In this document: positions 545 through 41,327 of the stretch, piece after piece
How positions within the stretch are numbered: the stretch's first letter is position 1
How the letters are laid out: each line of letters begins with the position of its first letter
Assembly (NCBI GenBank): GCA_944381235.1
Contig: CALWKI010000069.1
Span: 1-56,448 of the forward strand
Direction of reading: 5' to 3'
DNA: 56,448 nucleotides
Source of the DNA: an uncultured Clostridia bacterium
GTDB lineage: Bacteria; Bacillota; Clostridia; Christensenellales; UBA1242
Made by a program: the position numbers and the translations under genes
Notes under the pieces: generated by a model
Seen by the model: only the letters and a program-made list of their open reading frames with translations
Told to the model about the DNA's origin: nothing
Database searches by the model: none

Positions 545-2557
545 ATGAAAAAGTTACTAATTAGAATTTTGCTTTTTATACCTATAATAGGAATTTGCTA
601 CTTACTTGGTCTTGCAATGACCTATTTTTTCACCTATGGAGGAGAAGGTTCTTTTGATATAGGACTTCTTTCTCAAGGAACATTTACTTTGGTTCCGGTA
701 ATCGTTGGTGGAGGAATTTACCTTATATATTTTTTAAACAAATTACTCGATGTGTCAAAACCAGACAAAGCAAAGCCAGGGTCAAAGAATAAAGAAGGTA
801 AAGAAGTTGCACAATATTTTGATTCTAGATGGATAACTGAAAAAGAACTCAAAACTGAAAAAAAGTTTATGTATGCCACATGGAACACGATTAGAAGCAG
901 CAAAGACGGAATACTACTTAGAAGCGAACTGAGAAAGAACAATCTAGAAATTAATATGTACCAGCCAATTCATGCGCTTATTATTGGTACAACTGGTACT
1001 GGAAAGACGCAAAAATATATAATTCCGACCATTCAGATTATGTCTTCCACTAAAACAAAGCCTAGTTTTGTCATTGCCGACCCAAAGGGCGAATTATATG
1101 AAAAAAACAGTCATAAACTAATTGAAGAAGGCTATGAAGTAAAAGTATTTAACCTAAGACAACCATTTTCGTCAGTTAAGTGGAACCCGCTTGACAACGC
1201 ATATGAACTTTATCACAGGGCGCATCACTTGCACGATTTTGTTAAAGTACATTCAGGCGTCAATCCGGCTGATCTTGGGCTCAAGATAATAAGTAGTGAG
1301 TACAACTACGAGTGGTACGAATATGGTGGAGTTGCTTATCCAAACAAACAAATACTTGACGAGGACCTTGAATCTAAAAAAGCAGAATATATTGACCAAG
1401 CAGAAAATGACCTAAGAGAAATAGCAACCATCCTCTGCCCTATTAAAAATGAAAAAGATCCAAGTTGGGAAAGAGGTGCGCAAGAAATGATATTAGGTAC
1501 AATGCTTGCCATGCTTGAAGATAGTTTAGACGAAAGACTAAATATGACGCGGGATAAGTTTAATTTCTACAATTTACGTAAAATTGTGACTTATAAAGAC
1601 ACTGACCCAGACAATCCATACAAGACACTTAGACAATATTATGCAGGTAGAGACAAATTTAGTAAAGTGCCGGGGCTAGTTAGTGGGGCAATTAACAATG
1701 CACCTAGTACAACTAAGAGTTATATGGGTATAGTAACAGGAAGTCTTGGAGTATTTAACGATAATGGTATGTGCTTTGCGACAAGTGAAAATGAAATGAA
1801 TTTTGATTCATTTGGTGACAAACCTACTGCCCTATTTATCATTATTCCAGACGAAAAAGAGTCAAGGTGGGGTATTGCAACTATGATGATTTCACAACTT
1901 TACAAAAAACTTGTAGACCTTGCAAACAACTACCCTAACATGATGTTACCAAGGCCTGTATATTTCCTGCTTGACGAGTTCGCAAATCTTCCAAAGATAG
2001 AAAAAATTGATACAATGATTACGGTAAGTCGTAGTAGAAATGTATTTTTCTCACTTGTTGTTCAGTCTTTTAGCCAATTAAACGCAAAATATGGGGATGA
2101 CGTCGCACAAACCATTAAAGGTAACTGTCCAATAAAAATATTCATTGGTACAGACGATAGAGTGACGTGTGAAGAGTTTAGTAAACTATGTGGAGATATG
2201 ACGCTTGAAATTTCGTCCACCTCTGAAAGTAAACAAAAAGACGAAAAAGGAAAAGAAAATCCAAACAAGACGACAAGTTTATCTACTGCCTCTCGTCCAC
2301 TTATTTATCCAGACGAACTTGGACACTTAGGAGACAGCGGTGGCACGAGTGAAATCATTATTAAAATTCTTAACGAGTTCCCTATGAGAATAAAATCTAC
2401 TGCTTACTGGGCAACCCCTATGTTTGACCATATGAAAGCATCAAGCGGATATGTGCCAAGTAGGTCACTTAATGAGGCAAAAATAAGTTACAATATTTCA
2501 GATAGAAATCAAATTGTTTTAAAACCTAGACCTATGATTGACATGAGTGATTTTTAA
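545..2557 (+). CDS. Type IV secretion coupling protein (VirD4/TraG family T4CP ATPase)
   Basis: 670 aa. Two N-terminal TM helices. Walker A is IIGTTGTGKTQKYIIPTI (nt ~982-1009), followed by the ADPKGELY motif. Walker B is VYFLLDEFANLPKI (nt ~1959-1982). GGAGG lies 4 nt upstream of the ATG. This is the typical VirD4/TraG/TraD architecture. Confidence 0.88.
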   Translation: MKKLLIRILLFIPIIGICYLLGLAMTYFFTYGGEGSFDIGLLSQGTFTLVPVIVGGGIYLIYFLNKLLDVSKPDKAKPGSKNKEGKEVAQYFDSRWITEKELKTEKKFMYATWNTIRSSKDGILLRSELRKNNLEINMYQPIHALIIGTTGTGKTQKYIIPTIQIMSSTKTKPSFVIADPKGELYEKNSHKLIEEGYEVKVFNLRQPFSSVKWNPLDNAYELYHRAHHLHDFVKVHSGVNPADLGLKIISSEYNYEWYEYGGVAYPNKQILDEDLESKKAEYIDQAENDLREIATILCPIKNEKDPSWERGAQEMILGTMLAMLEDSLDERLNMTRDKFNFYNLRKIVTYKDTDPDNPYKTLRQYYAGRDKFSKVPGLVSGAINNAPSTTKSYMGIVTGSLGVFNDNGMCFATSENEMNFDSFGDKPTALFIIIPDEKESRWGIATMMISQLYKKLVDLANNYPNMMLPRPVYFLLDEFANLPKIEKIDTMITVSRSRNVFFSLVVQSFSQLNAKYGDDVAQTIKGNCPIKIFIGTDDRVTCEEFSKLCGDMTLEISSTSESKQKDEKGKENPNKTTSLSTASRPLIYPDELGHLGDSGGTSEIIIKILNEFPMRIKSTAYWATPMFDHMKASSGYVPSRSLNEAKISYNISDRNQIVLKPRPMIDMSDF

Positions 2558-2761: not shown

Positions 2762-5700
2762 ATGAACAAAACAAGGATAAAAGTTGTTGCTTTTAGTTTA
2801 ATAATGCTAGTTTTTAGTTGCTGTTTTATTTTCTTAAATGAAAGTAAGACTAACCCGCTTGGTGAGAGAAAGGAAGTTATGGCGTCCTATCAAACGGGAG
2901 ACACATATTTTTCTGATACAGAAAACACTTCAAACAGTACCCTTATTGAAAATGGATATATTCCCTTTTCCCTTTTTACTAGCGTTGAATATGCAGGTAA
3001 TGCGGGATATAGCATAACCGACTACTATCCTGAATTTACCACAAGTGTAAGAAACAATACATACTACTACGAAATGACAGAGGATTCTGTCCCATACATT
3101 CTTTTATCCTCAAAATCTGGTACGACGGCAGACGATATTTTAACAACTCTTTATAACTCTACGCTTCACTTTAGGTTTAACGATATAAACGCAAAGACTG
3201 ACCCAGGAATTAACTATGGCAAAATTAGCGAACGTGGTCAAATGCAAATGGCTGTGACTATTAGAAATTCGCCAACTGACGACCCTATTGTCCTTAGTGC
3301 GAGCCCTGACTATGTAATTGCCGAAGAAGACAACATGTATTCATTTGCAGTAAATTTGCAAGAACTTATACTCAATGGTGCGACAAATGAAAACGCGGAG
3401 TGTCCTGAACTAGCGCTAAGTGGTGGAGACGTTGGAATTGGTGAGGAAGATCAACAAGAATACCTAGGCGGTAATGGCACAAACAACGACGTATCTGCAA
3501 GAACTGGTCTTTATACATTTACCATTAGTTATAACTACACCTCATCAATAAGTGGACAATTTGTTTCCAACAACTGTGTATTTGAGATGTCTGTTTATGT
3601 GGTTGACTATAGTACATATATTACAGAAAATCAAAATCCACTAACCTTTGAAAATACAGACGTATATACAGTCGAAAATGAAACTTTTACAAAAGAATAT
3701 CAAATTTATAACTACAACTATGAAAATGCACCAGTTGTAAACTATGACGCATCAAAGTTTGCTCTTAACTTTACCTTTAAAGTTGGTGGAGATGACAATA
3801 CATCTAATGTTTATCATTTTAATTACGATAATTTCGTTGTTGATCACGAGGATGGCCGCACGGGTATTGTAACTTTAAGTTGCGAAGAAAATGGCAACAC
3901 CTATTCTTTTTACACCTATGACGACGGAGACGCGGAAAATGGCACACAATATCTCGCTAAATTTTATTTAGATGATTTTGAAAAAAATTACATAATGGTA
4001 AACCAATCATACTTTAACACCTCCGTTTTTCAAGGTATATACGAATTTGAACTTGACTTACTTACTCAAGGTGACGGCAGTGTACCATACACACACGTTG
4101 ACAAAAATTTATTTAGCGAAGAGATACAAGAGAGTTTGACATACGAGAGACTTATTATCTTTGGCTACGACCTAAGGTATGAGGACAAGGATACCTCTTC
4201 CCCAACCTACAATCAAGTATTACCTTTAGTTAATGACTACACACATACAACTATTGCATCTTATAATGCTATGACAAATGGACTAGATGAAACTGAAGAT
4301 GAAACTGAAGTCGGTAATCTCCTGTCTATCCCAAGCCTTATTGCAACTACGAACATTACACCTCTTAGATTCCATAATTATGGCTCGCTTACAGATTACA
4401 CGGCGACTTACAGAAGATTTGACTCTTTCCAAATAAGTGACGAAGAAATTTTAAACACTATAAACGGCATGACACTTGCTGAAATTGATGATTACATTGC
4501 AAAAGACGATTCAACTTACTCTCAAGAATTTCAAAACATTACTGTTGCTGGCATTTATCTTATGAAACTAGAATACTCTATTGATGTCCCAGTACCACTC
4601 GTAGGAGACGACAATACCCCAATCAAGAATATTACAGGCTGCCAGTATGTCTTATTTAAAATTGAGTCCGGTTTACAATCTCTTTATATCCAAGGGATAG
4701 AGGGTGACACGGCATACGACTTTGTCAGCGCAACAAACAAAGATGTAAGGGTCGGAATTGAGGTAAGAAATAACCTTTTCTCTAATCCAATAAGTGTAAG
4801 TTACACATATGCACAAGATTATCAAAATACGTCCATGTCAGGGACGCTATCTCTAAAAAGAGGTGAAGATGGTGAACTTGAAACCTTTACAATTAATAAT
4901 AAAGAGTATTACTATTATGTTATAAATGGAGCACTTGACTATATATTTACAAAAAATGGTAGATATACTGTTACTATACGCAGCACTGGAAGCACAGCAA
5001 AAAGTTACGGCTTTAGTATTGATAAAGAAGATATTTCTGACATTCAAGTAAATAGCGTAGTACAATCTAGTCTTGGAAATTATGTAAAGAGTAATGAAAT
5101 TACAAGTTCAAATATCTATGGGTTTGATTATATTGATAAAAATCTTTATGTGACAGACTCCGCGTTTACAGTAGGCTGGGCTCCAAAGAGGAGTGGAGTT
5201 AAAGAGTATGTTTCTATTTACGTTATGGATCTAAAAAGAGGAGATAGCGCGACATCTTCTTCCCTATTTAAGCAAACAAATGGTGACTACTGGCTTACAA
5301 ACAATTATTACTTTGACGCTTTGAAAACTGGAGACAGTTCTAATTATCTTAATAGTTACAATTTAACAACCCTTGAGGCAAATAGTTATTTCTTTAGACC
5401 GGGACTTTACTATTTCTTTATCTACGACGACGCAGGAAATTATTCTGGAATTACAGTACTTGTTGACGACACCTTACCTCAAATTGCACAAGGTAGTTGG
5501 AGTGGAGTGCCGGAAGAGTCTACTTGGGAAAATTCCTATTCCCCAACAACAAATCCAAATAATTTTGTAAACTCAGATACTGTCCTTTATTTTGGAACAC
5601 ATAAGGCACTTAGTTTACCACTTCAGAAAAGTTCCACAGGGGAAAACTTCTTTGAAAACGAAATAACTTTACAAATAACAGATAGAAGTTACACTAACGC

Positions 5701-8700
5701 GTATGACCTGACAAATAATGGCGCACCTGTCACAAAAGAAAACATTAATATAAATTTTTACAAAGATGTTTTACTTGCTTTAACAAATTATATCAAAGAA
5801 ACAGATGGCGGGGACTTATTTAATCTTTCTTGGGCTGAAGAAGAAGATAGGTTAACATATTACCTTCTTCTTGAAAACACTTTAGTCAATTACTCATACT
5901 TCCCAGTTGATGTTAGTCTTACTCCAAGTTCAGGTACTTATAGCCCAGCACCTGTAAGTGTTGCGCTATACTTAAATAATTCTAATGCGACATTTAATGG
6001 CGAGGCAGATTATGTATTTTCTTTACTTAACCAAAATGGACTTCAAATAGATAGAGAAGTTCATATGAGTTTAGATAATGTAAGAAGTTCGTTTTATGCG
6101 TATAACTCTCCTGAAGATAGATTTTATATAAGAAAAAATGCTGGGACAAATCTTAATTCATTAATTTTTGAATATACAATTTTAAACAATGATTTGTCTG
6201 AATATTACGAAATTGAAAGTCTCTACTATAGTTACTATCCTTTTGCACTAGACGAGAGTGACGCTAATTATTCCCTGTCTTCCTATCCATTCTCATCTGT
6301 CGCAGTTGAAGAGGACACTCCTCTTACCGCCACCTCTCTTGACGGCATTACTTACACAACAAGCACAATAAATCCCGACTATTCGTCAAGTGAATATGGG
6401 ATAACAGAACCTGGAATGTATGTGGTAACTCGAGTTTATAGAGGTGGTCCATATAACTTAGTCAATGGTGAGTATGTTGAAACAGACACAGGCTATGGCG
6501 GAACTCATTACCTAGGCGATGACGGCAACTACTATCCTCTCTTCTCTCTTGATCCAATGACAAAAAGTTATACTGTTTATGTAGACCATAATGGAATAAT
6601 TAGTTCTACTTACTTAAGTGACGGCATAACGCGCGAAGTCGGAGATAATATTAGTATTTCTTTAAATGACGACACAAATTACTCATATACATTTAAAGAG
6701 TTCCTCACAATGACAGGAAATCGCGCACTTGTTACAAATGAAGTACCTATCAAAATAAATATTCCTTTCAGCAAGTACTTTAAGTATGCAGAAAATGGAA
6801 CACTAAATTACGTTTATAGCGCACTTAGTTTTTCAAAACTTAACGTCGAAATTGTTTACACTAATACATCTGGCGTTCAATATACCTACACAATAGACGG
6901 CTATGATAGTAGTACTGGAATGTGCACTAGTTCTATGCTCGTTAGCACATCTAATCCAAACGGACACTTAATATTCCAAGAACAAGGAAGTTACACTATT
7001 AGAATTACGGATAACACGGGATACACGTTATCAAGTACATCCTCTACTAATCTTAATGTAAATCCAACTAGTCTAGAGTTTAGCTTTGAGATTAGCCATA
7101 CTTCCCCATCTGCTACTGCATATTCATATATTTACAATTCAATTACAGATAGGTTTGAACAAAATATACAAAATGACGAGTACGGTACACATATTTATGC
7201 AGTTAACGCAACAAACGAGGTAATAAATGGTGAACGCAATAGATTTTACTTAGTGTGGCAAGATGATAGAACACCTTATATGTCAAAAGTAAATAATTTA
7301 AATATCAACTACATTATAAATAGTCAAGCAAGCAATTTTAACATAGATTTTAGTAGATATGACCTAAATGAAATAGCAGAACAAAATTTGGCAATTTTAT
7401 TAAGTGACGCAAATTCTAGTTTAACAGTTCTCGCAGAAAACTCAGTTAATTTAGACTCTTTCCTATTTTACCTTACAGTAGACTACTACGACGCAAACAA
7501 TCCTTATGAGGTTTATGATGGTGAAAACTATTATAGATATGTGTACACTTTGAATTTTGGGCTTGGTGCGGAATGTGTTTATGAAGTAACACTAAGTTAT
7601 GACAATACTAGTTCGTTTGCGTTTAAGAGTACAACTTATGACGTATCTATTGATAGAACAAAGCCAAATACAAATCTTGACAACTTAATTAATAGCGAAG
7701 ACTTTTTAAGGACATATTATTCTAGTTCAATAGAAAGTTTTAAAGAAGAAAAATTTGATATCAATAATTTATACACACTTCCTTCCGTCCTAACCTACAC
7801 ATTCGGAGTTAATACAGACTATGTGTTAAATTACAATGAAGAAGAGACAGTCCCTTACTTTTATGTAAGGTCTTACAACAAATATAACGGAGAATACGCT
7901 AGCATTACTCCAGACCTTGCAAATACTGAATACTATCAAAACGAAGATATTTTTGGTAGATATCCAAAATTCACTGAAACATCTCTTACAAATAATATTG
8001 TAAATATTGGGGATAATGTGTGGTATCTTGTTGAATATTCAAACGACTCCTTGTACTCATTAATTGCAAATACTTTGGGCGTAGTACCAAGCGGTTACTA
8101 CGAAATTATAGAGAGAGACTACGCAGGAAATTATAGGACTTTTACAATTTATTTTGCCTCGCAAGACTCGTCAAGTTATGATATCCTTAGACTTGATGGA
8201 CGAGACGAAATTAGAGAAACTTTTGAAAGTTCGACAGGTGACAACCTTACTGCAGAGGCTTTCTTTACACTAACTCAGTTATCTTCAAGATTAGGCTGGG
8301 GTGTTGTAAAGCTAAGAAATGAAACCTTAAATCTAGACTTTGATACACGTATTTATTTGACACCTGAAAGTAATCTTAATTCAACTCTTCTTGAAAGAAT
8401 TAACACTTTCTTAAGCGGTGGCGGAGATGAAATAAATATTAATTGTAGATATAGTTTCACTTTATCAAAATACAACTCTTCCTTCCCACCAGTTGTCAAG
8501 TCTGTAAGCGTTATTACAAACGAAGACAATGCAAGGCTTAGCGCTCCTACTATCACAGAAGTTCCAAACATTGAAACTGGCTTGTCAACATATACTTTAA
8601 CCCTCCCTGCTTATTCAACAACTTCTGTTTTATACTTAACGAGTTTTGATTTATATGCATTTTCCAATTCAACTGGGGCTTGGGAACTAACTCAATATTC

Positions 8701-11338
8701 TTATGACGACAGGGACGAGATAAGATTAAATAACCCAATACGAGGTTTAAGCGCGGGTGTTTATAGAGCCGTTTATATGGACAACTATAATACTAGTTCG
8801 TACGAATACATATTGTATGTAGGTGAATATCGGTTAGAAAATTTTGAAGACCAATACAATTTTAGTTATAACTATGTAATTGATAATAGTACTACAACTT
8901 ACTACACAGGAGGAGATGTCACTGTCACATATGAAGGTAATATCTATTCAGTTTATGTAAATGGTATTTTGTATTCGGGCACCTCTCACGAGTATCAACC
9001 AGAAAGTTTGCAACAAAACAATTTAAAACGCTTTGACCTAACAAGTGATTTTACCTACGACAATATTCCTGCAAATCAAAGTGTTGGAGGTACGACCGAA
9101 TACATTATAGAGTATAGAGATATAACAAATGGTCAAACGCAAAAAGTAATGCGAATAACTATTTTTGATATGCTACCAGAAATACTACTTACAAACAATG
9201 ATGATGAAAACGATGAAATATCTTCAACTCTTGAAGAAAGCGATTCACAAATTACAAATTCTAGCGTTAGAATTAACTATGGATACATAACTGGTTGTGA
9301 GTACGAAGCACTTAACGATTCAGACACTAACGAAGTCACAACTGCAACTCTTTACACGAGAGACGCAAACGGGCTTTATAGAAACGGAATTACAATACCT
9401 CGAGGAAATAGTTCTGATAGAAACCTTGTAAGTGAAGAAGGATACTACAGACTTGATATTACAAATAGAATACTTGGAAACACAAGATCGGTTTATTTTG
9501 TAATTAGGCTTGGAGACTTCCCTTTATACACAGTAAGTGATGGAGACACAACTCTTTCCCCTTCCCCATATGAAACACTTAATATTACTTTAAATAGTGC
9601 TGGTAATCTTGTGCAAGACACAAACGGCAATCAAAATAGCATTCTTTACACAATATATAATGCTTTGACCTCACTTCGTGACAATGGAAGTTTTGATAGC
9701 AATACTGATAGAAATGAAAGAGAGTACAATATGCTTGTTGAAGCAATGGGCTTTAGAAACGGAATATATTCTCAAACAAACATTGGGATTGCAAACGTGT
9801 TAAATCTTAGCCATTTCTATACCGTAAATAATGCTAGCATTACCTATAATAGTAATATTAACCTTGACATAATTGAGTTTACTTTTGAAAATAGCATTTT
9901 ACAAAATTTCTTTATACACGGAGATGGAGGATCAAACCCAACTCCTACAGGAGACGATGTAGACTACTGGACAACAATTTATCTTGTTTACTCACTCAGT
10001 GGACCAATTAGAATTGAATTTTTTGCAGTTACAAAAGTACCTAGATCAACCAATCTCATTGGAAACACAATTTATTACAATGAAACTGAATCAATACTTA
10101 TTCGTGAAAATGAGCGAGAACGAGACCTAACAAATTCAAATGGGATTGTGAATAATGAGTTGTCTCTTCAATGGAACAGTTTAAATCCTTCTCAAACAAC
10201 ATATTGGTACAATCAAGGTAATTTCATCTATGTAATGGAGAGATATGGAGTTGATGAAGATTATGTCGCGCTTGATTATACATATAACTCGACAAACGGA
10301 AGAAATTCATCAATCTTGCAGGGTGCTGGAACACATAGACTTATGTTTAGAGACATTGCGGGAAATACGCATAGTTTTTCAACTAGTTCAATGGCAATCG
10401 ACCCAAATGTTTATACAATTAATATAATTACTGAGGTCATCTACTACATTAACTATAATAATGAGGATCTAAACCCTATTCAATACGGAATATTTAATGA
10501 TAGTTTAAGTTTGGTAATTGATAGCACTTATCTTGAGAAAATATCAAGGTACAACGTTAGTGTAGTTAGAAATGGAACGCCTTATAACGCTTATACTAGA
10601 GAAGACAATGTTTACACCTTCACCTCTCCTGGCAGATATGTTGTAACTCTAACAGGTTCGTATGGAGGAAACGATTTAAATACTGCAACATACAATTTCA
10701 CTTTAGTGTCAACAAATTCTGCACGTCTTGCATTTGAATTTACACAAGTTCTAGATTACAAAATTATTCAAGTAATTAGAAATAATGAGGACATTACAGA
10801 TAACTTTGCTGTAAATGGAGAGATCTCTTCCCTATTTATATCATCTAGCGATTCAAGAAGTGGAAATGGTTACTATACTGTAACATTAAAATACGGAGAA
10901 AGAGACGACGAAATACTTGAATTTTCCTTCTTTATTAACGACTATGAACCAACTTTGTCTAGTAACGTTGCGTATGGAGAAACAACAACTTCAGAAATTG
11001 TAATATCATACAACCCTGCTTACATTTACGGACAACTTGGTGTTTGCTATATTAATGTTTTGATTTACAATGAAGACAGCGGGACTTTCTATCAATATGG
11101 TAGATTTACAATTAACGAGACCTCAACCGACAGCCTCTCTTCCTTTAGTTTGACACAATCTAATTCGTATTTCATACAAGTTGAAACTGAAAGCGGAAAC
11201 ATTGTATCTAGTTTTAGAGTAAATAAAACCGACCCACTAAATACCTTTGCTATAATCATTATTGTTATCGCAGTAGTTGCAACTATTGTACTCGTAATTG
11301 TTGTTATAAAACTTAGGACGAGAATGCGCGTCAGATAA
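2762..11338 (+). CDS. Giant (2,858 aa) surface protein with an N-terminal signal/anchor helix, a C-terminal TM anchor and many divergent beta-sandwich-like modules
   Basis: The ORF is 8,577 nt and uninterrupted in an AT-rich genome. An AGAGGT RBS is present. The N-terminus is MNKTRIKVVAFSLIMLVFSCCFIF. The C-terminus is FAIIIIVIAVVATIVLVIVVIKLRTRMRVR, a TM helix plus a basic stop-transfer segment. There is no LPXTG. Composition is Y/N/T/S-rich. Recurring module endings of the type G-Y-x-hydrophobic-T ... D-x-(A)GN ... hydrophobic-D-x-T-x-P, e.g. YFFIYDDAGNYSGITVLVDDTLPQI, YEIIERDYAGNYRTFTIYF, HRLMFRDIAGNTHSFSTSSMAIDPNV, YDVSIDRTKPNT, ITIFDMLPEI, FFINDYEPTL. Confidence 0.85.
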   Translation: MNKTRIKVVAFSLIMLVFSCCFIFLNESKTNPLGERKEVMASYQTGDTYFSDTENTSNSTLIENGYIPFSLFTSVEYAGNAGYSITDYYPEFTTSVRNNTYYYEMTEDSVPYILLSSKSGTTADDILTTLYNSTLHFRFNDINAKTDPGINYGKISERGQMQMAVTIRNSPTDDPIVLSASPDYVIAEEDNMYSFAVNLQELILNGATNENAECPELALSGGDVGIGEEDQQEYLGGNGTNNDVSARTGLYTFTISYNYTSSISGQFVSNNCVFEMSVYVVDYSTYITENQNPLTFENTDVYTVENETFTKEYQIYNYNYENAPVVNYDASKFALNFTFKVGGDDNTSNVYHFNYDNFVVDHEDGRTGIVTLSCEENGNTYSFYTYDDGDAENGTQYLAKFYLDDFEKNYIMVNQSYFNTSVFQGIYEFELDLLTQGDGSVPYTHVDKNLFSEEIQESLTYERLIIFGYDLRYEDKDTSSPTYNQVLPLVNDYTHTTIASYNAMTNGLDETEDETEVGNLLSIPSLIATTNITPLRFHNYGSLTDYTATYRRFDSFQISDEEILNTINGMTLAEIDDYIAKDDSTYSQEFQNITVAGIYLMKLEYSIDVPVPLVGDDNTPIKNITGCQYVLFKIESGLQSLYIQGIEGDTAYDFVSATNKDVRVGIEVRNNLFSNPISVSYTYAQDYQNTSMSGTLSLKRGEDGELETFTINNKEYYYYVINGALDYIFTKNGRYTVTIRSTGSTAKSYGFSIDKEDISDIQVNSVVQSSLGNYVKSNEITSSNIYGFDYIDKNLYVTDSAFTVGWAPKRSGVKEYVSIYVMDLKRGDSATSSSLFKQTNGDYWLTNNYYFDALKTGDSSNYLNSYNLTTLEANSYFFRPGLYYFFIYDDAGNYSGITVLVDDTLPQIAQGSWSGVPEESTWENSYSPTTNPNNFVNSDTVLYFGTHKALSLPLQKSSTGENFFENEITLQITDRSYTNAYDLTNNGAPVTKENININFYKDVLLALTNYIKETDGGDLFNLSWAEEEDRLTYYLLLENTLVNYSYFPVDVSLTPSSGTYSPAPVSVALYLNNSNATFNGEADYVFSLLNQNGLQIDREVHMSLDNVRSSFYAYNSPEDRFYIRKNAGTNLNSLIFEYTILNNDLSEYYEIESLYYSYYPFALDESDANYSLSSYPFSSVAVEEDTPLTATSLDGITYTTSTINPDYSSSEYGITEPGMYVVTRVYRGGPYNLVNGEYVETDTGYGGTHYLGDDGNYYPLFSLDPMTKSYTVYVDHNGIISSTYLSDGITREVGDNISISLNDDTNYSYTFKEFLTMTGNRALVTNEVPIKINIPFSKYFKYAENGTLNYVYSALSFSKLNVEIVYTNTSGVQYTYTIDGYDSSTGMCTSSMLVSTSNPNGHLIFQEQGSYTIRITDNTGYTLSSTSSTNLNVNPTSLEFSFEISHTSPSATAYSYIYNSITDRFEQNIQNDEYGTHIYAVNATNEVINGERNRFYLVWQDDRTPYMSKVNNLNINYIINSQASNFNIDFSRYDLNEIAEQNLAILLSDANSSLTVLAENSVNLDSFLFYLTVDYYDANNPYEVYDGENYYRYVYTLNFGLGAECVYEVTLSYDNTSSFAFKSTTYDVSIDRTKPNTNLDNLINSEDFLRTYYSSSIESFKEEKFDINNLYTLPSVLTYTFGVNTDYVLNYNEEETVPYFYVRSYNKYNGEYASITPDLANTEYYQNEDIFGRYPKFTETSLTNNIVNIGDNVWYLVEYSNDSLYSLIANTLGVVPSGYYEIIERDYAGNYRTFTIYFASQDSSSYDILRLDGRDEIRETFESSTGDNLTAEAFFTLTQLSSRLGWGVVKLRNETLNLDFDTRIYLTPESNLNSTLLERINTFLSGGGDEININCRYSFTLSKYNSSFPPVVKSVSVITNEDNARLSAPTITEVPNIETGLSTYTLTLPAYSTTSVLYLTSFDLYAFSNSTGAWELTQYSYDDRDEIRLNNPIRGLSAGVYRAVYMDNYNTSSYEYILYVGEYRLENFEDQYNFSYNYVIDNSTTTYYTGGDVTVTYEGNIYSVYVNGILYSGTSHEYQPESLQQNNLKRFDLTSDFTYDNIPANQSVGGTTEYIIEYRDITNGQTQKVMRITIFDMLPEILLTNNDDENDEISSTLEESDSQITNSSVRINYGYITGCEYEALNDSDTNEVTTATLYTRDANGLYRNGITIPRGNSSDRNLVSEEGYYRLDITNRILGNTRSVYFVIRLGDFPLYTVSDGDTTLSPSPYETLNITLNSAGNLVQDTNGNQNSILYTIYNALTSLRDNGSFDSNTDRNEREYNMLVEAMGFRNGIYSQTNIGIANVLNLSHFYTVNNASITYNSNINLDIIEFTFENSILQNFFIHGDGGSNPTPTGDDVDYWTTIYLVYSLSGPIRIEFFAVTKVPRSTNLIGNTIYYNETESILIRENERERDLTNSNGIVNNELSLQWNSLNPSQTTYWYNQGNFIYVMERYGVDEDYVALDYTYNSTNGRNSSILQGAGTHRLMFRDIAGNTHSFSTSSMAIDPNVYTINIITEVIYYINYNNEDLNPIQYGIFNDSLSLVIDSTYLEKISRYNVSVVRNGTPYNAYTREDNVYTFTSPGRYVVTLTGSYGGNDLNTATYNFTLVSTNSARLAFEFTQVLDYKIIQVIRNNEDITDNFAVNGEISSLFISSSDSRSGNGYYTVTLKYGERDDEILEFSFFINDYEPTLSSNVAYGETTTSEIVISYNPAYIYGQLGVCYINVLIYNEDSGTFYQYGRFTINETSTDSLSSFSLTQSNSYFIQVETESGNIVSSFRVNKTDPLNTFAIIIIVIAVVATIVLVIVVIKLRTRMRVR

Positions 11339-11390
11339 TTCAAAATTATTCTTAAATGTACTTATTCTTTCATTTTAAATCTATCAAAAT

Positions 11391-11426
11391 AAAAATCACC
11401 TAGGAAAATAATCTTAGGTGATTTTT
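11391..11426. terminator. Bidirectional hairpin terminator between the convergent giant gene and the Rho-like gene
   Basis: aaaatcaccta (11392-11402) pairs with taggtgatttt (11415-11425). The A-run before and T-run after allow it to work on both strands. Confidence 0.7.
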
Positions 11427-11467
11427 AACTATAATAAATCTTAACCTCAAATTTAGTTAAATATTAT

Positions 11468-12619
11468 CTAATTTTTATAATCAACAAACATACAATTATA
11501 ATTTTCAAGTTCACTTTTAAGTGTATTTAAACTTTCTGACATTCCATTGTCCTTAAGTAGTGCTACAACCGTAACGCTTGCCCCATTACTATATGTGCCC
11601 GCATATCTCATAAGACGGGAAACCAAGAACAGTGAATACGACTTAATGTCGCCTATGTTACCATTATTTAAAAAGTTTTGATACTTCACCATTTTCATAA
11701 GTTCGTTGACAAATATAACTACTTTTTTACCTTGCTCAATAAGTCTTGAAAGTCTTGAAAAACAAATTTCACAAGTGAGTGCATTCATTTTTGCCGTATC
11801 ATCAAGTAATGTATAAAAACTTTCACTAAAATTAAGATTATACTCAGGCAATGCGTCAATGCACAAATTCACAAAGTGATATTTGTCCACACATCTTTCT
11901 CTTATCTCCTGAAGTATGTCCATATATTTATTAAAAGAAGAAACACTTAAAACTATTCTCTTTCCTTCTTCTACGTCTCCAACTATTTCACTAAAATATA
12001 TATATTTATCGCTTCTTTGAACACTAATCTCGGCTATATCTTGTGTTTTAGTAAAATCTGATAAATTCTTAATCTTAGTTGCAATTCTTGCGTTATAATT
12101 AATACTATTTTTATATACACATTTTATATAGTCTGAATCTTTTAGATTGTTTTGATATACTAGTTCAGCAGGCACAATAATAGCATTTTCTATCTTTGCG
12201 ACCCTTCCATTTTGAAAAAGGTAAAAATTTTCTCCTATTTGCTTTAAATACCCCTCACCATCTCTAAAATCAAACTTTTCATCGTACTTAAATGGTGCAC
12301 TTTGATATGAATCATTCAGTTCTGCATAATTTTCTTCTTGTGGTGAAGAAAAGTCGTAATCACGCAAATTATTTGAATCTATCACGTCGCTATATTTTGT
12401 CGGTCCTTGATATAAATATGGGTTTCTTGCCTTTGGAGGCCTGCCTTGGCGATTTTTTGGTACTTCTGGTTGTTTTTCACCACTTAGAATTTGGAGGATT
12501 TTTTCAATGAGTTCATCCTTCTTACAAGTGGTAGGAGATAAAACCCCCAAGTCTCTTGCGAGGTTCCTCAAATCAAAGATTCCCATATTCCTCATTGTTA
12601 TTTCGTCAATTTTCTTCAT
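11468..12619 (-). CDS. Rho-like protein with a Rho N-terminal helix bundle, an OB-fold-like segment and a degenerate, truncated RecA-type domain (apparently ATPase-dead)
   Basis: 383 aa. [44 protein letters not shown] aligns with Rho_N. [18 protein letters not shown]...[21 protein letters not shown] aligns with E. coli GDGVLEILQDGFGFLR...[35 protein letters not shown] aligns with GQRGLIVAPPKAGKT, so GKT is lost. [10 protein letters not shown] aligns with [29 protein letters not shown] aligns with [29 protein letters not shown] aligns with GSLTIIATAL. The protein ends about 80 aa short of a full Rho. Confidence 0.6.
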   Translation of the reverse strand: [383 protein letters not shown]

Positions 12620-12740
12620 TTTTCCCCTTTTTTTACGGTATTAGTATACATTAAGTTAAATTTAATGTAAAGAAAAAGTTATCTTTACAAAATTGCAAAT
12701 TTTGGAAGTTCATTTTAGGACATAAATTAGTTTTTCTATT

Positions 12741-12776
12741 AAAAAATAGGAAGAATTTTTATCCTTCCTATTTTTT
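12741..12776 (-). terminator. Hairpin terminator downstream of ypeB, symmetric and usable on both strands
   Basis: aaaaaataggaag (12741-12753) pairs with cttcctatttttt (12764-12776). Confidence 0.7.
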
Positions 12777-38678: not shown

Positions 38679-41024
38679 CTAAATCGGTCTAGGCTCCCCA
38701 GTCACCTCATCATACTCCCAATTTACATTAAGCCCCCAATAAACACTTCCACCAATAAAATTCCACCTTGAATCCCACCCACTAGGCTGACTTTCCATCT
38801 CACAATAAATCGTAAGACTACTGCAATCAGAAAATGCATAATCCCCTATACTCGTAACACTCTCTGGAATTGTAATAGAGGTAAGACTACTGCAATCAGA
38901 AAATGCATACACTCCTATGCTTGTGACACTGCTTGAAATTGCAACACTCGAAATTTTTTCATTTCCATAAAAAGCATACTCATATATTTGATAAGTGTTG
39001 CCCGTAAATTCATCAAAAACTTTCTTTACATCTTCTATACTAGGTAAAATTAGATTTTCACTATTTCCAGTATAAGACAAAAGATACATAATATCATTAT
39101 CAAAATAGAAAACATAGTCTCCTACTTTTTGTTGTTTTAAAGGTGTATCTAGACTTGTGTATACATAGTCAGCATAATATCCTATATAACCATAACCATT
39201 ACTACCCGCCCTTATGCTAAGTCTACTTAAGTTAATTATTTCAACAAGTTTGTGACAATATTGAAATGCATAACTTCCTATACTTGTAACACTGCTTGAA
39301 ATTGTAATAGAGGTAAGACTATTGCAATTATAAAATGCCCTACTTCCTATACTCTCAAGTTGTGAATTATCTTCAAATGTTATGTTTGTTAGACTACTGC
39401 AACTAGAAAATGCATACTCACCTATACTTGTGACTGAACTTGGGATTGTAACACCTGTAATTGTATCATTTTCATAAAAAGCACGTTCATATATTTGATA
39501 AGTGTTGCCCGTAAATTCATCGAAAACTTTCTTTACATCTTCTATACTAGGTAACATTAAATTTGTATCATTACCCGTATAAGACAAAAAATACATTGTG
39601 CCATTATATAAATAGAAAATATAATCTCCTACTTTTTGTTGAATTAAAGGAGTATCTAGGCTTGTATATACATAGTCAGCATAATATCCAGCGTATCCAT
39701 TACTACCACTTCCCGCTGTTATATTAAGATTACTTAAGTTATATACTTCAACTAGTTTGTAGCAACCAAAAAATGCCATACCTCCTATACTTGTAACTGA
39801 ACTAGGAATTGTAATTGAAGTTAGACTATTGCAACCAATAAATGCAGAACTTCTTATGCTGACAACTGAACTAGGAATTGTAATTGAAGTTAGACTACTG
39901 CAACCAGAAAATGCAGAATCTCCTATACTTGTAACAGAACTTGGTAGCGTTATAGAGGTAAGACTTATGCAACCAGAAAATACATAACTTCCTATACTTG
40001 TAACTGAACTAGGAATTGTAATTGAAGTTAGACTACTGCAATATCTAAATGCAGAACTTCCTATGCTGACAACTGAACTTGGAATGATAATAGAGGTGAG
40101 ACTTCTGCAATCTCTAAATGCATAACTTCCAATAATTTTACATTTGGAGTTAATACTAAAAGTTTCAAAGTCTGTTATTTTTGTGTCTGCTAAATAAAGA
40201 TATGGATTTTCTTCGTTTCCAAGATACAATCCATTTTCATATTCATTAAATTGTAAACTATCGCAACCATCGAATGCAAGTTCTCCTATACTTGTCACAC
40301 CCTCTGGAATTGTGATAGAAATTAGATTTCCGCAGTATTGAAACGAATAATCTCCTATACTCTGAAGGGTCTCTGGAAGTAAGACTGTTGTAAGTGCACT
40401 TGGGCGTGAAGACGAAGAGCCACTAAACGCGTTATATGGAATGTCTACAACATCGTGAGAGACTATGACGTTGGTAATTGTTCTAAGTGATGCGTTTGCA
40501 AAGTCTGAATTATGTACATTTGGGGTTAAAAATACTGAATAAAGGGTAAAGACATTTTCAGTTGGCACGTCGTACCAAATTGGGTTGGACTCGGTTGAGA
40601 CGTAATATCTTATGTCGGTGTCGTTAAAGATTAGGTTTGGGTCTTCTGGGGTCTCTTGGACATTAATAAAAGCCGGGTTGGTTGAGAAAAAGTAAAATTC
40701 CCCGCCGTTCTCATTGGTTATCTCGTCAAGATTTGTGACAGTGCCGTCAGTGACCTCTGGCACAACGCCGTCAAGGCGGAACTTATCCTTTTCCTCGTTT
40801 AAAACTACTTTTGTAGTGGTGTTATTTACCTCACTTCCCTCGTGACGCGCAAACGTCAAAATTATGTTTGGCGCCTCCTCTTGCACCTCATACTCGACGT
40901 TTAAATCTTCATAATATTTTTTATTGACCGCGTCGACAACGACAAAAATTGTGAGCACCGCAAAAATACCCATAACGACAAGTAGTAAAATTGACGTAAG
41001 TAAATTTCTTTTAACTTTTCCCAT
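38679..41024 (-). CDS. BspA-like leucine-rich-repeat surface protein with an N-terminal membrane anchor
   Basis: About 23-aa repeats of the type IPSSVTSIGSYAFSGCSSLTSIT, in many copies. The N-terminal TM is LLTSILLLVVMGIFAVLTIFVV. I prefer the ATG at 41024 (MGKVKRN...). The upstream extension to 41111 has no support. Confidence 0.85.
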   Translation of the reverse strand: MGKVKRNLLTSILLLVVMGIFAVLTIFVVVDAVNKKYYEDLNVEYEVQEEAPNIILTFARHEGSEVNNTTTKVVLNEEKDKFRLDGVVPEVTDGTVTNLDEITNENGGEFYFFSTNPAFINVQETPEDPNLIFNDTDIRYYVSTESNPIWYDVPTENVFTLYSVFLTPNVHNSDFANASLRTITNVIVSHDVVDIPYNAFSGSSSSRPSALTTVLLPETLQSIGDYSFQYCGNLISITIPEGVTSIGELAFDGCDSLQFNEYENGLYLGNEENPYLYLADTKITDFETFSINSKCKIIGSYAFRDCRSLTSIIIPSSVVSIGSSAFRYCSSLTSITIPSSVTSIGSYVFSGCISLTSITLPSSVTSIGDSAFSGCSSLTSITIPSSVVSIRSSAFIGCNSLTSITIPSSVTSIGGMAFFGCYKLVEVYNLSNLNITAGSGSNGYAGYYADYVYTSLDTPLIQQKVGDYIFYLYNGTMYFLSYTGNDTNLMLPSIEDVKKVFDEFTGNTYQIYERAFYENDTITGVTIPSSVTSIGEYAFSSCSSLTNITFEDNSQLESIGSRAFYNCNSLTSITISSSVTSIGSYAFQYCHKLVEIINLSRLSIRAGSNGYGYIGYYADYVYTSLDTPLKQQKVGDYVFYFDNDIMYLLSYTGNSENLILPSIEDVKKVFDEFTGNTYQIYEYAFYGNEKISSVAISSSVTSIGVYAFSDCSSLTSITIPESVTSIGDYAFSDCSSLTIYCEMESQPSGWDSRWNFIGGSVYWGLNVNWEYDEVTGEPRPI
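38945..39755 (-). repeat. 507-bp (169-aa) tandem intragenic duplication within the LRR gene
   Basis: The 67-nt core at 38981-39047 recurs at 39488-39554 with one mismatch. atacatagtcagcataatat occurs at 39161 and at 39668, an offset of 507. At protein level YYADYVYTSLDTPL(I/K)QQKVGDY...PSIEDVKKVFDEFTGNTYQIYE occurs twice. Near-identical 69-bp LRR units also occur at about 39800-40080. Confidence 0.9.
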
Positions 41025-41327
41025 AGTACACAAAACTCCCTTATCTTTAGTTTTTTTATTTTTACTAAAAAATATGACGATTAATAAATGAATACAGAAA
41101 ATTATTGACAATAAAACTATATTTTTAGTATATATTGCATAGCGATTTTTAGCAAATAATTTAGCATAATAATTAAAAATTGAAGTTTAAAACATAAATT
41201 TTTCTCTAAAAATTCTATCATAGCCTACACTTAAGCTAAATGTTGTATAAAAGTTCGTTAAAAACCAACCTAGTTATTATTTTAATTTTTATTTGGTTAC
41301 AAGTGACAAAAAAACTAAAAAGCCTTT

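Follow-up and report, generated by a model that had tools for sequence, protein, structure and literature searches.

The pseudo-Rho locus

The 56,448-nucleotide contig CALWKI010000069.1 of an uncultured Clostridia bacterium (assembly GCA_944381235.1; GTDB lineage Bacteria; Bacillota; Clostridia; Christensenellales; UBA1242) carries on its reverse strand a gene for a 383-residue protein related to the transcription terminator Rho. This protein is called pseudo-Rho here, and the contig in its full length is called the window. The observations described below suggest that the gene very likely encodes a Rho-derived pseudo-ATPase, which has been maintained by selection and belongs to an unnamed family.

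The window is chromosomal, containing rpoB, rpoC, rpsL, rpsG, fusA, tuf, trpS, uvrC, rsmA, tatD, spo0A, spoIIR, sleB and ypeB. A gene for a VirD4-like ATPase and a giant gene, both on the forward strand, are followed by the pseudo-Rho gene and then by ypeB, sleB and spoIIR, all on the reverse strand. All genes in that part of the window except the giant and VirD4-like ones share the prevailing orientation. The features of the locus are listed in Table 1.

Table 1. Features of the pseudo-Rho gene and of its neighborhood in the window (residues are those of pseudo-Rho)
Feature	Position	Strand	Evidence
Pseudo-Rho coding sequence, 383 residues and stop	11468..12619	-	Open reading frame, Rho homology, purifying selection
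Rho_N helix bundle, residues 1-46	12482..12619	-	PF07498 above cutoff; model helices 6-11, 14-24, 34-45
Basic GRP motif, AT-hook-like, residues 51-66	12422..12469	-	No variation at G59, R60 or P61 in 50 diverse members; motif near position 53-60 in most of the top 150 representatives
Disordered, mostly acidic linker, residues 55-108	12296..12457	-	Predicted local distance difference test (pLDDT) <50; charge analysis
OB fold, equivalent of Rho_RNA_bind, residues 119-183, with degenerate RNP1 ENFYLF	12071..12265	-	AlphaFold2 (AF2) model, hhalign, MAFFT
RecA-like core, residues 204-383, which lacks the ATPase motifs and stops short of the Arg-finger region	11471..12010	-	hhalign, MAFFT, AF2 model, Foldseek
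SVSSFNKY (residues 225-232) in place of Walker A PPKAGKT	11924..11947	-	hhalign and MAFFT
CIDALPEY (residues 253-260) in place of LIDERPEE; catalytic Glu to Ala, next Arg to Leu	11840..11863	-	hhalign and MAFFT
IFVNELMK (residues 302-309) in place of Walker B LLLDSITR; Asp to Asn	11693..11716	-	hhalign and MAFFT
Q-loop equivalent, 4 residues shorter, without the SGK/T motif (Rho: SGK...GG)	11633..11674	-	MAFFT
Sigma-A-type promoter TTTACA-N17-TATACT, 23 nt before the ATG, followed by a GGGG ribosome-binding site	12643..12671	-	Conserved upstream regions
Intrinsic terminator hairpin and T-run closing the upstream ypeB transcript	12741..12776	-	Folding energy -18.2 kcal/mol, z -5.35; inverted repeat I11
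Bidirectional terminator hairpin between pseudo-Rho and the convergent giant gene	11390..11427	.	z -4.6 / -5.1 per strand; inverted repeat I8
Giant gene, 2858-residue protein with N-terminal signal anchor and C-terminal transmembrane helix, S/N/T/Y 39%	2762..11338	+	No Pfam domain
VirD4/TraG-like coupling ATPase, two N-terminal transmembrane helices, intact GTTGTGKT	545..2557	+	NF045973, 291.7 bits (cutoff 250)

Homology to Rho

The first-pass annotation of this DNA had aligned the protein collinearly with E. coli Rho by eye, and the same arrangement emerges from comparison of profiles. An hhalign comparison of ten aligned family members (alignment A1) with aligned real Rho proteins (A2) gives a probability of 98% (E 2.6e-13). 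The match is collinear, joining residues 18-383 of the query to residues 4-357 of Rho, and thus extends well beyond the N-terminal SAP-like helix pair. A phmmer search of the PDB sequences returned Rho chains only, the best of which was M. tuberculosis Rho (7oqh, E 7e-5, around the Walker B region). The AF2 model built on A1 has a mean pLDDT of 78.4 and a predicted TM-score of 0.69, and its disorder is confined to the linker. When this model was compared with the PDB using Foldseek, the top 50 matches were all Rho (E 1e-15 to 1e-11), with root mean square deviations of 3.2-3.9 Å over about 300 columns for the best-fitting Rho chains in single-body superpositions. The profile, PDB-sequence and structure matches together indicate that the likeness to Rho is true homology along the whole length of the protein.

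Individual family models see much less of this relationship. The only Pfam domain found in the 383-residue protein is Rho_N (PF07498; 26.2 bits, cutoff 24.9, residues 11-43). The NCBIfam Rho equivalogs TIGR00767 and PRK09376 match the N-terminal 170 residues (E ~1e-7) and score 29.1 and 29.9 bits, the cutoffs being 509 and 315, respectively. Membership in the 'Rho short form' family NF041509 was considered and ruled out, as the protein scores 18.2 bits against a cutoff of 628 (a local match of residues 272-354, E 1e-3) and 10 diverse relatives score 22-132 bits.

Loss of the ATPase motifs and of the C-terminus

The motifs of the RecA-like domain were compared in the hhalign result and in a MAFFT alignment of 15 clade members with Clostridial Rho and E. 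coli Rho (the E. coli sequence in the latter and in A2 was entered by hand). Both methods give an identical register for all motif replacements. The changes of PPKAGKT to SVSSFNKY, of LIDERPEE to CIDALPEY and of LLDSITR to FVNELMK, which had been proposed by eye, are each reproduced. The glycine-rich turn of the P-loop and its Lys/Thr are also missing in register, a GK[ST] was found in register in none of the 15 aligned clade members, and neither alignment offers a register that would restore GK[ST] or the D/E motifs. The same losses are seen in all 15 of these proteins and in most of the top 150 representatives of the profile search described below. In addition to the shortened Q-loop, the R-loop TGSKMD of Rho has become NGMSES, so that the R-loop Lys is gone. 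Two residues of the Walker B replacement, E306 and K309, are invariant within the clade.

The protein stops opposite residue ~350 of E. coli Rho. As had been noted in the first reading, this early stop removes the Arg-finger region, the number of residues lost being about 70 and not 80. The missing part comprises the C-terminal helices (~350-419) and the counterpart of R366, the Arg finger of E. coli Rho.

From the loss of the ATPase motifs and of the Arg finger we infer that pseudo-Rho would be unable to hydrolyse ATP or to translocate along RNA, and hence that it is not a terminator. It could be argued that the protein still works as a Rho-type motor or terminator and binds nucleotide through non-canonical residues, since the overall fold is retained and E306, K309, R292 and a GxSxT motif are conserved within the clade. 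Such a motor would have to function without the P-loop turn, its Lys/Thr, the catalytic Glu, the Walker B Asp and the Arg finger, with a short Q-loop and without the R-loop Lys. These losses, and scores of 29-30 bits in NCBIfam Rho models whose cutoffs are 315 and 509, make an active motor very improbable.

The N-terminal region and the OB fold

Directly after the Rho_N helix bundle comes an invariant PKxRQGRPPK motif; no other feature is as well conserved in the large, unnamed superfamily to which the protein belongs. A comparison of 50 diverse members shows R18, R22, G25 and P29 of Rho_N to be invariant, together with G59-R60-P61 of the motif and G123. This invariance suggests that the Rho_N helix bundle and the GRP arm form the functional core of the superfamily. 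Compared with the R-G-R-P of an AT-hook, the motif has kept the GRP core and the basic flanks, the first core Arg is replaced by Gln, and the Pfam AT_hook model gives no match. The GRPPK motif may bind nucleic acid, either DNA or RNA.

These features could also be those of a general DNA-binding or nucleoid-associated protein, in which Rho_N and the GRPPK arm would act on AT-rich duplex (the genome has 33% GC) and the Rho body would serve as an oligomerization scaffold. Such a function would be in line with the drift of the OB and RecA parts across a superfamily in which Rho_N and the GRP motif are conserved best, with the constitutive appearance of the promoter (sigma-A type), and with the occurrence of a distant subfamily in unrelated contexts. 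The GRP core, however, has one Arg only and receives no AT-hook call from Pfam, the protein as a whole is acidic (isoelectric point 5.6), and the presence of the same GRP motif in the bona fide Rho P0138 suggests an RNA-binding origin. A nucleoid function would also leave the strict linkage to the giant gene unexplained, and it is quite unlikely.

The insert between Rho_N and the OB fold had been described as basic, disordered and about 70 residues long. Its size (72 residues, 47-118) and its disorder (residues 55-108) are borne out; its basic character is not. The insert has a net charge of -3 and an isoelectric point of 4.8, and only the stretch of residues 47-66 is basic. According to the alignments, the linker differs in length and sequence among orthologs.

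In the AF2 model the OB region has five strands, the third and fourth of which are separated by a helix. The equivalence of this region to that of Rho is thus supported by fold, by alignment and by relatives, 33 of 50 of which have a significant PF07497 match in Pfam; the 383-residue sequence itself has none. Only the aromatic pair of RNP1 has been kept (F/Y-x-F135, that is F/Y133 and F135), and F135 is invariant. The earlier statement that the RNA-binding half is conserved holds, therefore, for Rho_N and for the OB fold, and fails for the primary-site residues, which are replaced except for the RNP1 aromatic pair.

The pseudo-Rho family

A word-indexed search found 9 close relatives (31-99% identity, 369-404 residues), after which genuine Rho proteins come directly, sharing 21-22% identity with the query over 90% of its length. 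When 1.84 billion cluster representatives were searched exhaustively with a profile, there were 1902 matches with E<=1e-3, 768 with E<=1e-10 and 57 with E<=1e-30. On inspection, the best 150 representatives (50% identity) are mostly 350-470 residues long, have [KR]-x-GRP[PA]K at about residues 53-66 and lack a P-loop. True Rho (PKxGKT, no GRP) first appears near E 1e-25 in this listing. The features that define the GRPPK-type pseudo-Rho family (Rho_N, GRP[PA]K, the OB fold and a RecA-like core without GK[ST]) are all present in the window protein.

Ten diverse members of the family reach the cutoff of no NCBIfam model, and the only name given to the family in any source is 'hypothetical protein' (NCB48420.1). 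Full-text literature searches found no description of an ATPase-dead Rho paralog family. A 2025 review of Rho is silent on dead paralogs, and the main text of a 2024 survey of Rho diversity (PMC11347177) describes no such family. The literature and the databases are thus in agreement with the first-pass annotation, which was aware of no described family of this kind. Its core, a Rho-derived protein of an undescribed family with degenerate ATPase motifs and a truncated C-terminus, survived every test that was run.

Among GTDB species representatives, 14 metagenome-assembled genomes (MAGs) of uncultured bacteria, named 'Christensenella sp.' or 'Clostridia bacterium', carry members of the clade. 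The names of several of the carrier MAGs point to sheep, goat, human (Hadza) or mouse gut samples, and the sequencing runs that contain the window are mainly chicken-gut metagenomes. Remote loci were recovered by a metagenome scan seeded with a distant short subfamily, A4.

In some of the loci the syntenic position of pseudo-Rho is taken by a longer form of about 470 residues (L047, contig of 899 kb; L050, contig of 737 kb; L048, L049, L057 and L058). The order there is spoIIR-sleB-ypeB, then the gene of the long form, then the giant gene and the VirD4-like gene (the latter with 44-46% identity) in the opposite orientation. The long form has Rho_N, KTKQGRPPK, a near-canonical RNP1 (EGYGFCY), GKGQR, LIDERPEDITEY and ARNT..GSLT. 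It keeps the C-terminal S-x-TRK-x-LL or Arg-finger region and, in L047, L050, L057, L048 and L049, the LIDERPED segment; in the same five loci GK[ST] and the Walker B Asp are absent. Over the full length, most of the long forms share about 30% identity with Clostridial Rho (E ~1e-40 to 1e-49), and that of L047 shares 24%. As Walker A and Walker B are already lost in a form with an intact C-terminus, the loss of the ATPase preceded the truncation. Judged by these comparisons, the window protein is a more eroded ortholog of the ~470-residue form.

Other GRPPK proteins of about 460 residues (P0056, P0058, P0063, P0075 and P0068) have kept a Walker A of the type GE[KR]GSGK[ST] and a VDD, with the catalytic Glu changed to Lys. 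In P0056, P0063 and P0075 the retained motifs are GxxGSGKT and VDD, and the catalytic Glu is replaced. These Walker A-keeping proteins may bind nucleotide without hydrolysing it. P0138, a bona fide Rho with all catalytic motifs, has a GRP motif (AGKGRPVKA) right after Rho_N, which means that the motif is not exclusive to the dead forms. This suggests that the GRP motif arose in an RNA-binding Rho ancestor, and it may mark an ancestral Rho subtype.

Selection and expression

Several observations show that the gene is under selection. The ratio of nonsynonymous to synonymous substitution rates (dN/dS) is 0.05-0.27 between pairs of pseudo-Rho orthologs, and more than 20 orthologs of 369-430 residues are intact. 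Of 21 upstream regions, 18 (that of the window among them) have the promoter cTTTAC[AT]-N17-TATA[CA]T as their best hexamer pair, and the other 3 have variant hexamers. The sequence around the promoter has otherwise diverged.

It is scarcely credible that the gene is a decaying pseudogene or a chance open reading frame. The relative at L022 does appear to be frameshifted, as a pseudogene would be; the intact orthologs, the low dN/dS and the conservation of promoter, ribosome-binding site and terminators speak against decay, and the pseudogene reading is ruled out by dN/dS and promoter conservation. The L022 copy (1380-2505) lies in two frames, either because of a frameshift or because of an assembly error.

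In P0001, a protein 99% identical to that of the window, the start is called 11 residues further upstream (MYTNSVKKRGK...). The ATG of this start would overlap the -10 box (window 12620-12660, reverse strand), and it would be in frame only if the A-run that precedes the ribosome-binding site were different by one base. The likelier true start is the conserved MKK..., which follows the GGGG.

With its own promoter and with terminators on both sides, the gene is predicted to be an independent monocistronic unit, and it is probably expressed vegetatively. No sporulation-type promoter was seen upstream, where the sole conserved element is sigma-A-like, although no dedicated scan for sigma-F/G/E/K consensus sequences was made. 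Nothing credible was found among Rfam elements near the pseudo-Rho, giant and VirD4-like genes, and a search of RNA sequencing runs gave none that contains the gene.

Genomic partners

The context of the gene was read using tblastn and called-gene tables in L001-L004, L006-L021, L038-L042, L047-L050 and L053-L058, where flanks were available. In every locus with a readable flank the pseudo-Rho gene adjoins a giant gene for a membrane-anchored product of about 2500-2860 residues (2100-2870 in the definition of the giant-gene-linked clade), and the two genes are normally convergent. The VirD4-like gene follows the giant gene wherever the sequence reached far enough. The giant-gene linkage persists down to 24-28% identity between pseudo-Rho proteins.

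The other flank is usually spo0A...veg-sipL-spoIIR-sleB-ypeB. It is replaced by an ABC transporter in L001, L014 and L016 and by unrelated genes in L041. As the linkage is kept where the other flank changes, the invariant partner of pseudo-Rho is the giant gene and not the spore genes. In L012 (1406-6299) about 5 kb is inserted between the pseudo-Rho and giant genes. In L020 (982-13003; MAG CAJUBT01) the pseudo-Rho unit together with its promoter is inverted, so that it points towards ypeB and is found downstream of the giant gene in the same direction. An invertible switch at this locus was considered and rejected, because no convincing inverted repeats flank the unit, only AT-rich noise; the arrangement is probably an evolutionary inversion. 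In L042 (2411-11045) the giant gene appears to be split into parts of 567 and 2128 residues.

The frequent proximity to the spoIIR-sleB-ypeB cluster raises the possibility that pseudo-Rho is a sporulation or germination factor tied to these upstream genes of the same strand. In most loci it lies immediately downstream of ypeB in the same orientation, and Rho is reportedly subject to developmental regulation during B. subtilis sporulation. A strong terminator, however, follows ypeB, and the conserved promoter is sigma-A-like rather than sigma-F/G/E/K-like. Adjacency to the giant gene persists even where that to ypeB is lost (L001, L014, L016 and L041) or the gene is inverted (L020). A sporulation function is therefore improbable.

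The VirD4-like protein belongs to the CD1115 family according to NCBIfam and has the Pfam domains T4SS-DNA_transf, TraG-D_C and TrwB_AAD_bind; a look-up of its exact sequence gave no match. PADLOC gives no match for pseudo-Rho or for the giant protein and only a weak mad8 match for the ATPase. A terminator-like hairpin with a T-run, read by eye and not folded, follows the VirD4-like gene. No other components of a type IV secretion system (T4SS), namely VirB4, VirB6 or a relaxase, were seen in the flanks examined. The pair of VirD4-like and giant genes is conserved across many Clostridia MAGs.

VirD4-type coupling proteins are RecA-like hexamers that dock nucleoprotein substrates. Pseudo-Rho could thus be an accessory subunit of an apparatus made of the VirD4-like and giant proteins, acting as an adaptor that binds nucleic acid or substrate or as an assembly scaffold in the manner of the T4SS relaxosome accessory proteins. 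The three genes stay together across lineages despite changes in the other flank, the linked ATPase has an intact Walker A, and pseudo-Rho has plausible DNA- or RNA-binding elements. The convergent orientation, the separate promoter of each gene and the terminators that separate all three do not favor a common apparatus, nor does the apparent lack of VirB4, VirB6 and a relaxase in the flanks examined. The ordinary N-terminal signal anchor of the giant protein suggests export by the Sec pathway. An accessory role is a distinctly unlikely explanation, though it is the foremost of the alternatives. In decreasing order of credence, these are the VirD4/giant accessory, the general DNA-binding protein, the sporulation factor, the active motor and the pseudogene.

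Elsewhere in the window (38679-41111, reverse strand) lies a gene for an 810-residue surface protein with leucine-rich and PARCEL repeats, which is weakly similar to the HupY/LrrG adhesin and to Gli349.

Composition of the giant gene and canonical Rho

On the coding strand of the giant gene C is at least as frequent as G: the window copy has a G-skew of -0.015, and the values for 16 loci range from -0.18 to +0.04. In contrast, the pseudo-Rho genes have a G-skew of +0.16 to +0.29 and every other gene of the window one of +0.04 to +0.39. C-rich, G-poor RNA is the classical substrate on which Rho loads. The transcript of this C-rich, G-poor gene of 8.6 kb would thus be unusually exposed to Rho. 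Recent work (PMC13323073) argues that a purine bias lets the genes of Firmicutes evade Rho during runaway transcription.

Genuine Rho genes from related gut metagenomes (L023-L037, 23% GC) lie directly downstream of the sporulation genes yabP-yabQ-divIC. The genes of the genuine Rho proteins P0016 and P0020 are found on 23% GC contigs after yabP-yabQ-divIC, and no link between these and a pseudo-Rho genome was found.

Possible function of pseudo-Rho

By combining all the available information it is possible to propose a role for the protein. Pseudo-Rho is probably a nucleic-acid-binding regulator and not a terminator. It would constitute a passive binding module, made of Rho_N, the GRPPK arm and the OB fold and possibly oligomeric, and would act on transcription of the neighboring giant gene. 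Pseudo-Rho might occupy the nascent giant-gene RNA, or it might dilute or poison authentic Rho. In either case the very long giant transcript would be spared premature termination, and pseudo-Rho would serve as a Rho decoy or antiterminator dedicated to the locus. To the favored explanation, its identity and mechanism taken together, we assign a probability of roughly 0.45. Considered by itself, the decoy or antitermination mechanism for the giant gene is tentative and on the unlikely side. More doubtful still is the most specific version, according to which an ATPase-dead paralog has been recruited as a locus-dedicated Rho decoy that binds giant-gene RNA or poisons co-assembled Rho and so permits full-length transcription.

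Several points weigh against this explanation. The counterparts of R66, Y80 and E108-R109-Y110 are replaced in the short form according to the alignment; as R66, Y80 and E108-Y110 are primary RNA-site residues of E. coli Rho, sequence-specific binding of C-rich RNA by pseudo-Rho is doubtful. Without its C-terminal helices the protein may be unable to form rings or to mix with Rho. The decoy model requires a canonical Rho in the same genomes; a canonical rho was sought by tblastn, using three real Rho proteins as queries, in the 56-kb window, in L001-L022 and in L043-L058, and none turned up in these sequences (L038-L042 lay outside the scan). The C-richness of the giant gene is partly due to the Ser/Thr/Asn/Tyr-rich composition of its product and to its reversed orientation. 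The pseudo-Rho, giant and VirD4-like genes appear to be separate transcription units, and synteny within one broad bacterial lineage can persist without functional coupling. Finally, the short subfamily A4 (L043-L045, ~360 residues, TKQGRPPKN) is not found beside the giant gene. In L045 the A4 gene has an RstR-like helix-turn-helix repressor upstream on the opposite strand and MazF, an ABC-F protein and a Tex-like S1-domain protein nearby.

If the decoy mechanism is nevertheless true, pseudo-Rho would represent a new class of antitermination by paralog mimicry, with a logic like that of RfaH or LoaP but built from the terminator itself. The series of orthologs from ~470 to 383 residues would then record the stepwise conversion of a motor into a regulator. 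Gut Clostridia may, in this way, shield or otherwise regulate very long, C-rich genes for surface proteins by means of a degenerate copy of the terminator.

Rho is among the best-studied bacterial motors, and surveys treat it as a single functional type, which may have insertions or be absent. The present analysis adds a widespread and selected Rho lineage in which the scaffold has been kept and the engine discarded. This lineage amounts to a natural experiment in the capabilities of the Rho N-terminal domain and ring scaffold once translocation is gone. The GRPPK motif, the ATPase-less ~470-residue form found at the syntenic position and the strict linkage to the giant and VirD4-like genes are new relative to the first-pass annotation, and the motif and the linkage are the best clues to function. 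The family also has consequences for annotation. As Pfam sees Rho_N alone, pipelines label these proteins 'hypothetical' or could count them as rho, and either outcome distorts the maps of presence and absence of Rho-dependent termination in Firmicutes.

Comparison with known systems

Pseudo-Rho can be compared to Rho itself (TIGR00767 / PRK09376; PDB 1pv4, 3ice, 7oqh, 8hsj), with which it shares the order of Rho_N, OB fold and RecA-like domain, the R-x-x-R-L-x-E-x-G-K-x-V helix that precedes Walker B, and the GxSxT strand. Unlike Rho, it has no Walker A, catalytic Glu, Walker B Asp, Q- and R-loop signatures or Arg finger, and lacks about 70 C-terminal residues. Its primary-site residues are mostly replaced, it has the 72-residue insert with the invariant GRPPK motif, and it reaches less than 10% of the NCBIfam Rho cutoffs. 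The 360-position model NF041509 (paralog_Rho2) describes a short Rho paralog, but pseudo-Rho scores far under its cutoff.

The plant protein RHON1 and the cyanobacterial DUF4912 'Rho-like' proteins (discussed in PMC13613805) have the Rho_N helix bundle in common with pseudo-Rho, and RHON1 has been reported to mediate a Rho-like termination activity in plastids. These proteins have no OB and RecA-like domains, whereas pseudo-Rho keeps both folds. In the main text of Moreira et al. 2024 (NAR 52:8979; PMC11347177), proteins with one Rho domain, or with the N-terminal and RNA-binding domains, are placed in a 'Rho-like' bin (421 species), which that text leaves uncharacterised. Pseudo-Rho would fall into this bin by Pfam, which detects only its Rho_N. 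In contrast to the bin as described there, it is not a fragment but a full Rho homolog with a dead RecA domain and a conserved genomic partner.

The likeness of pseudo-Rho to the Rho antagonists Psu and Rof/YaeO, and to RfaH and LoaP, the NusG-paralog antiterminators of long operons, is one of functional analogy only. Although they are unrelated to pseudo-Rho in sequence and fold, all four are factors whose dedicated task is to protect certain long or foreign transcripts against Rho, and the same role is proposed here for pseudo-Rho.

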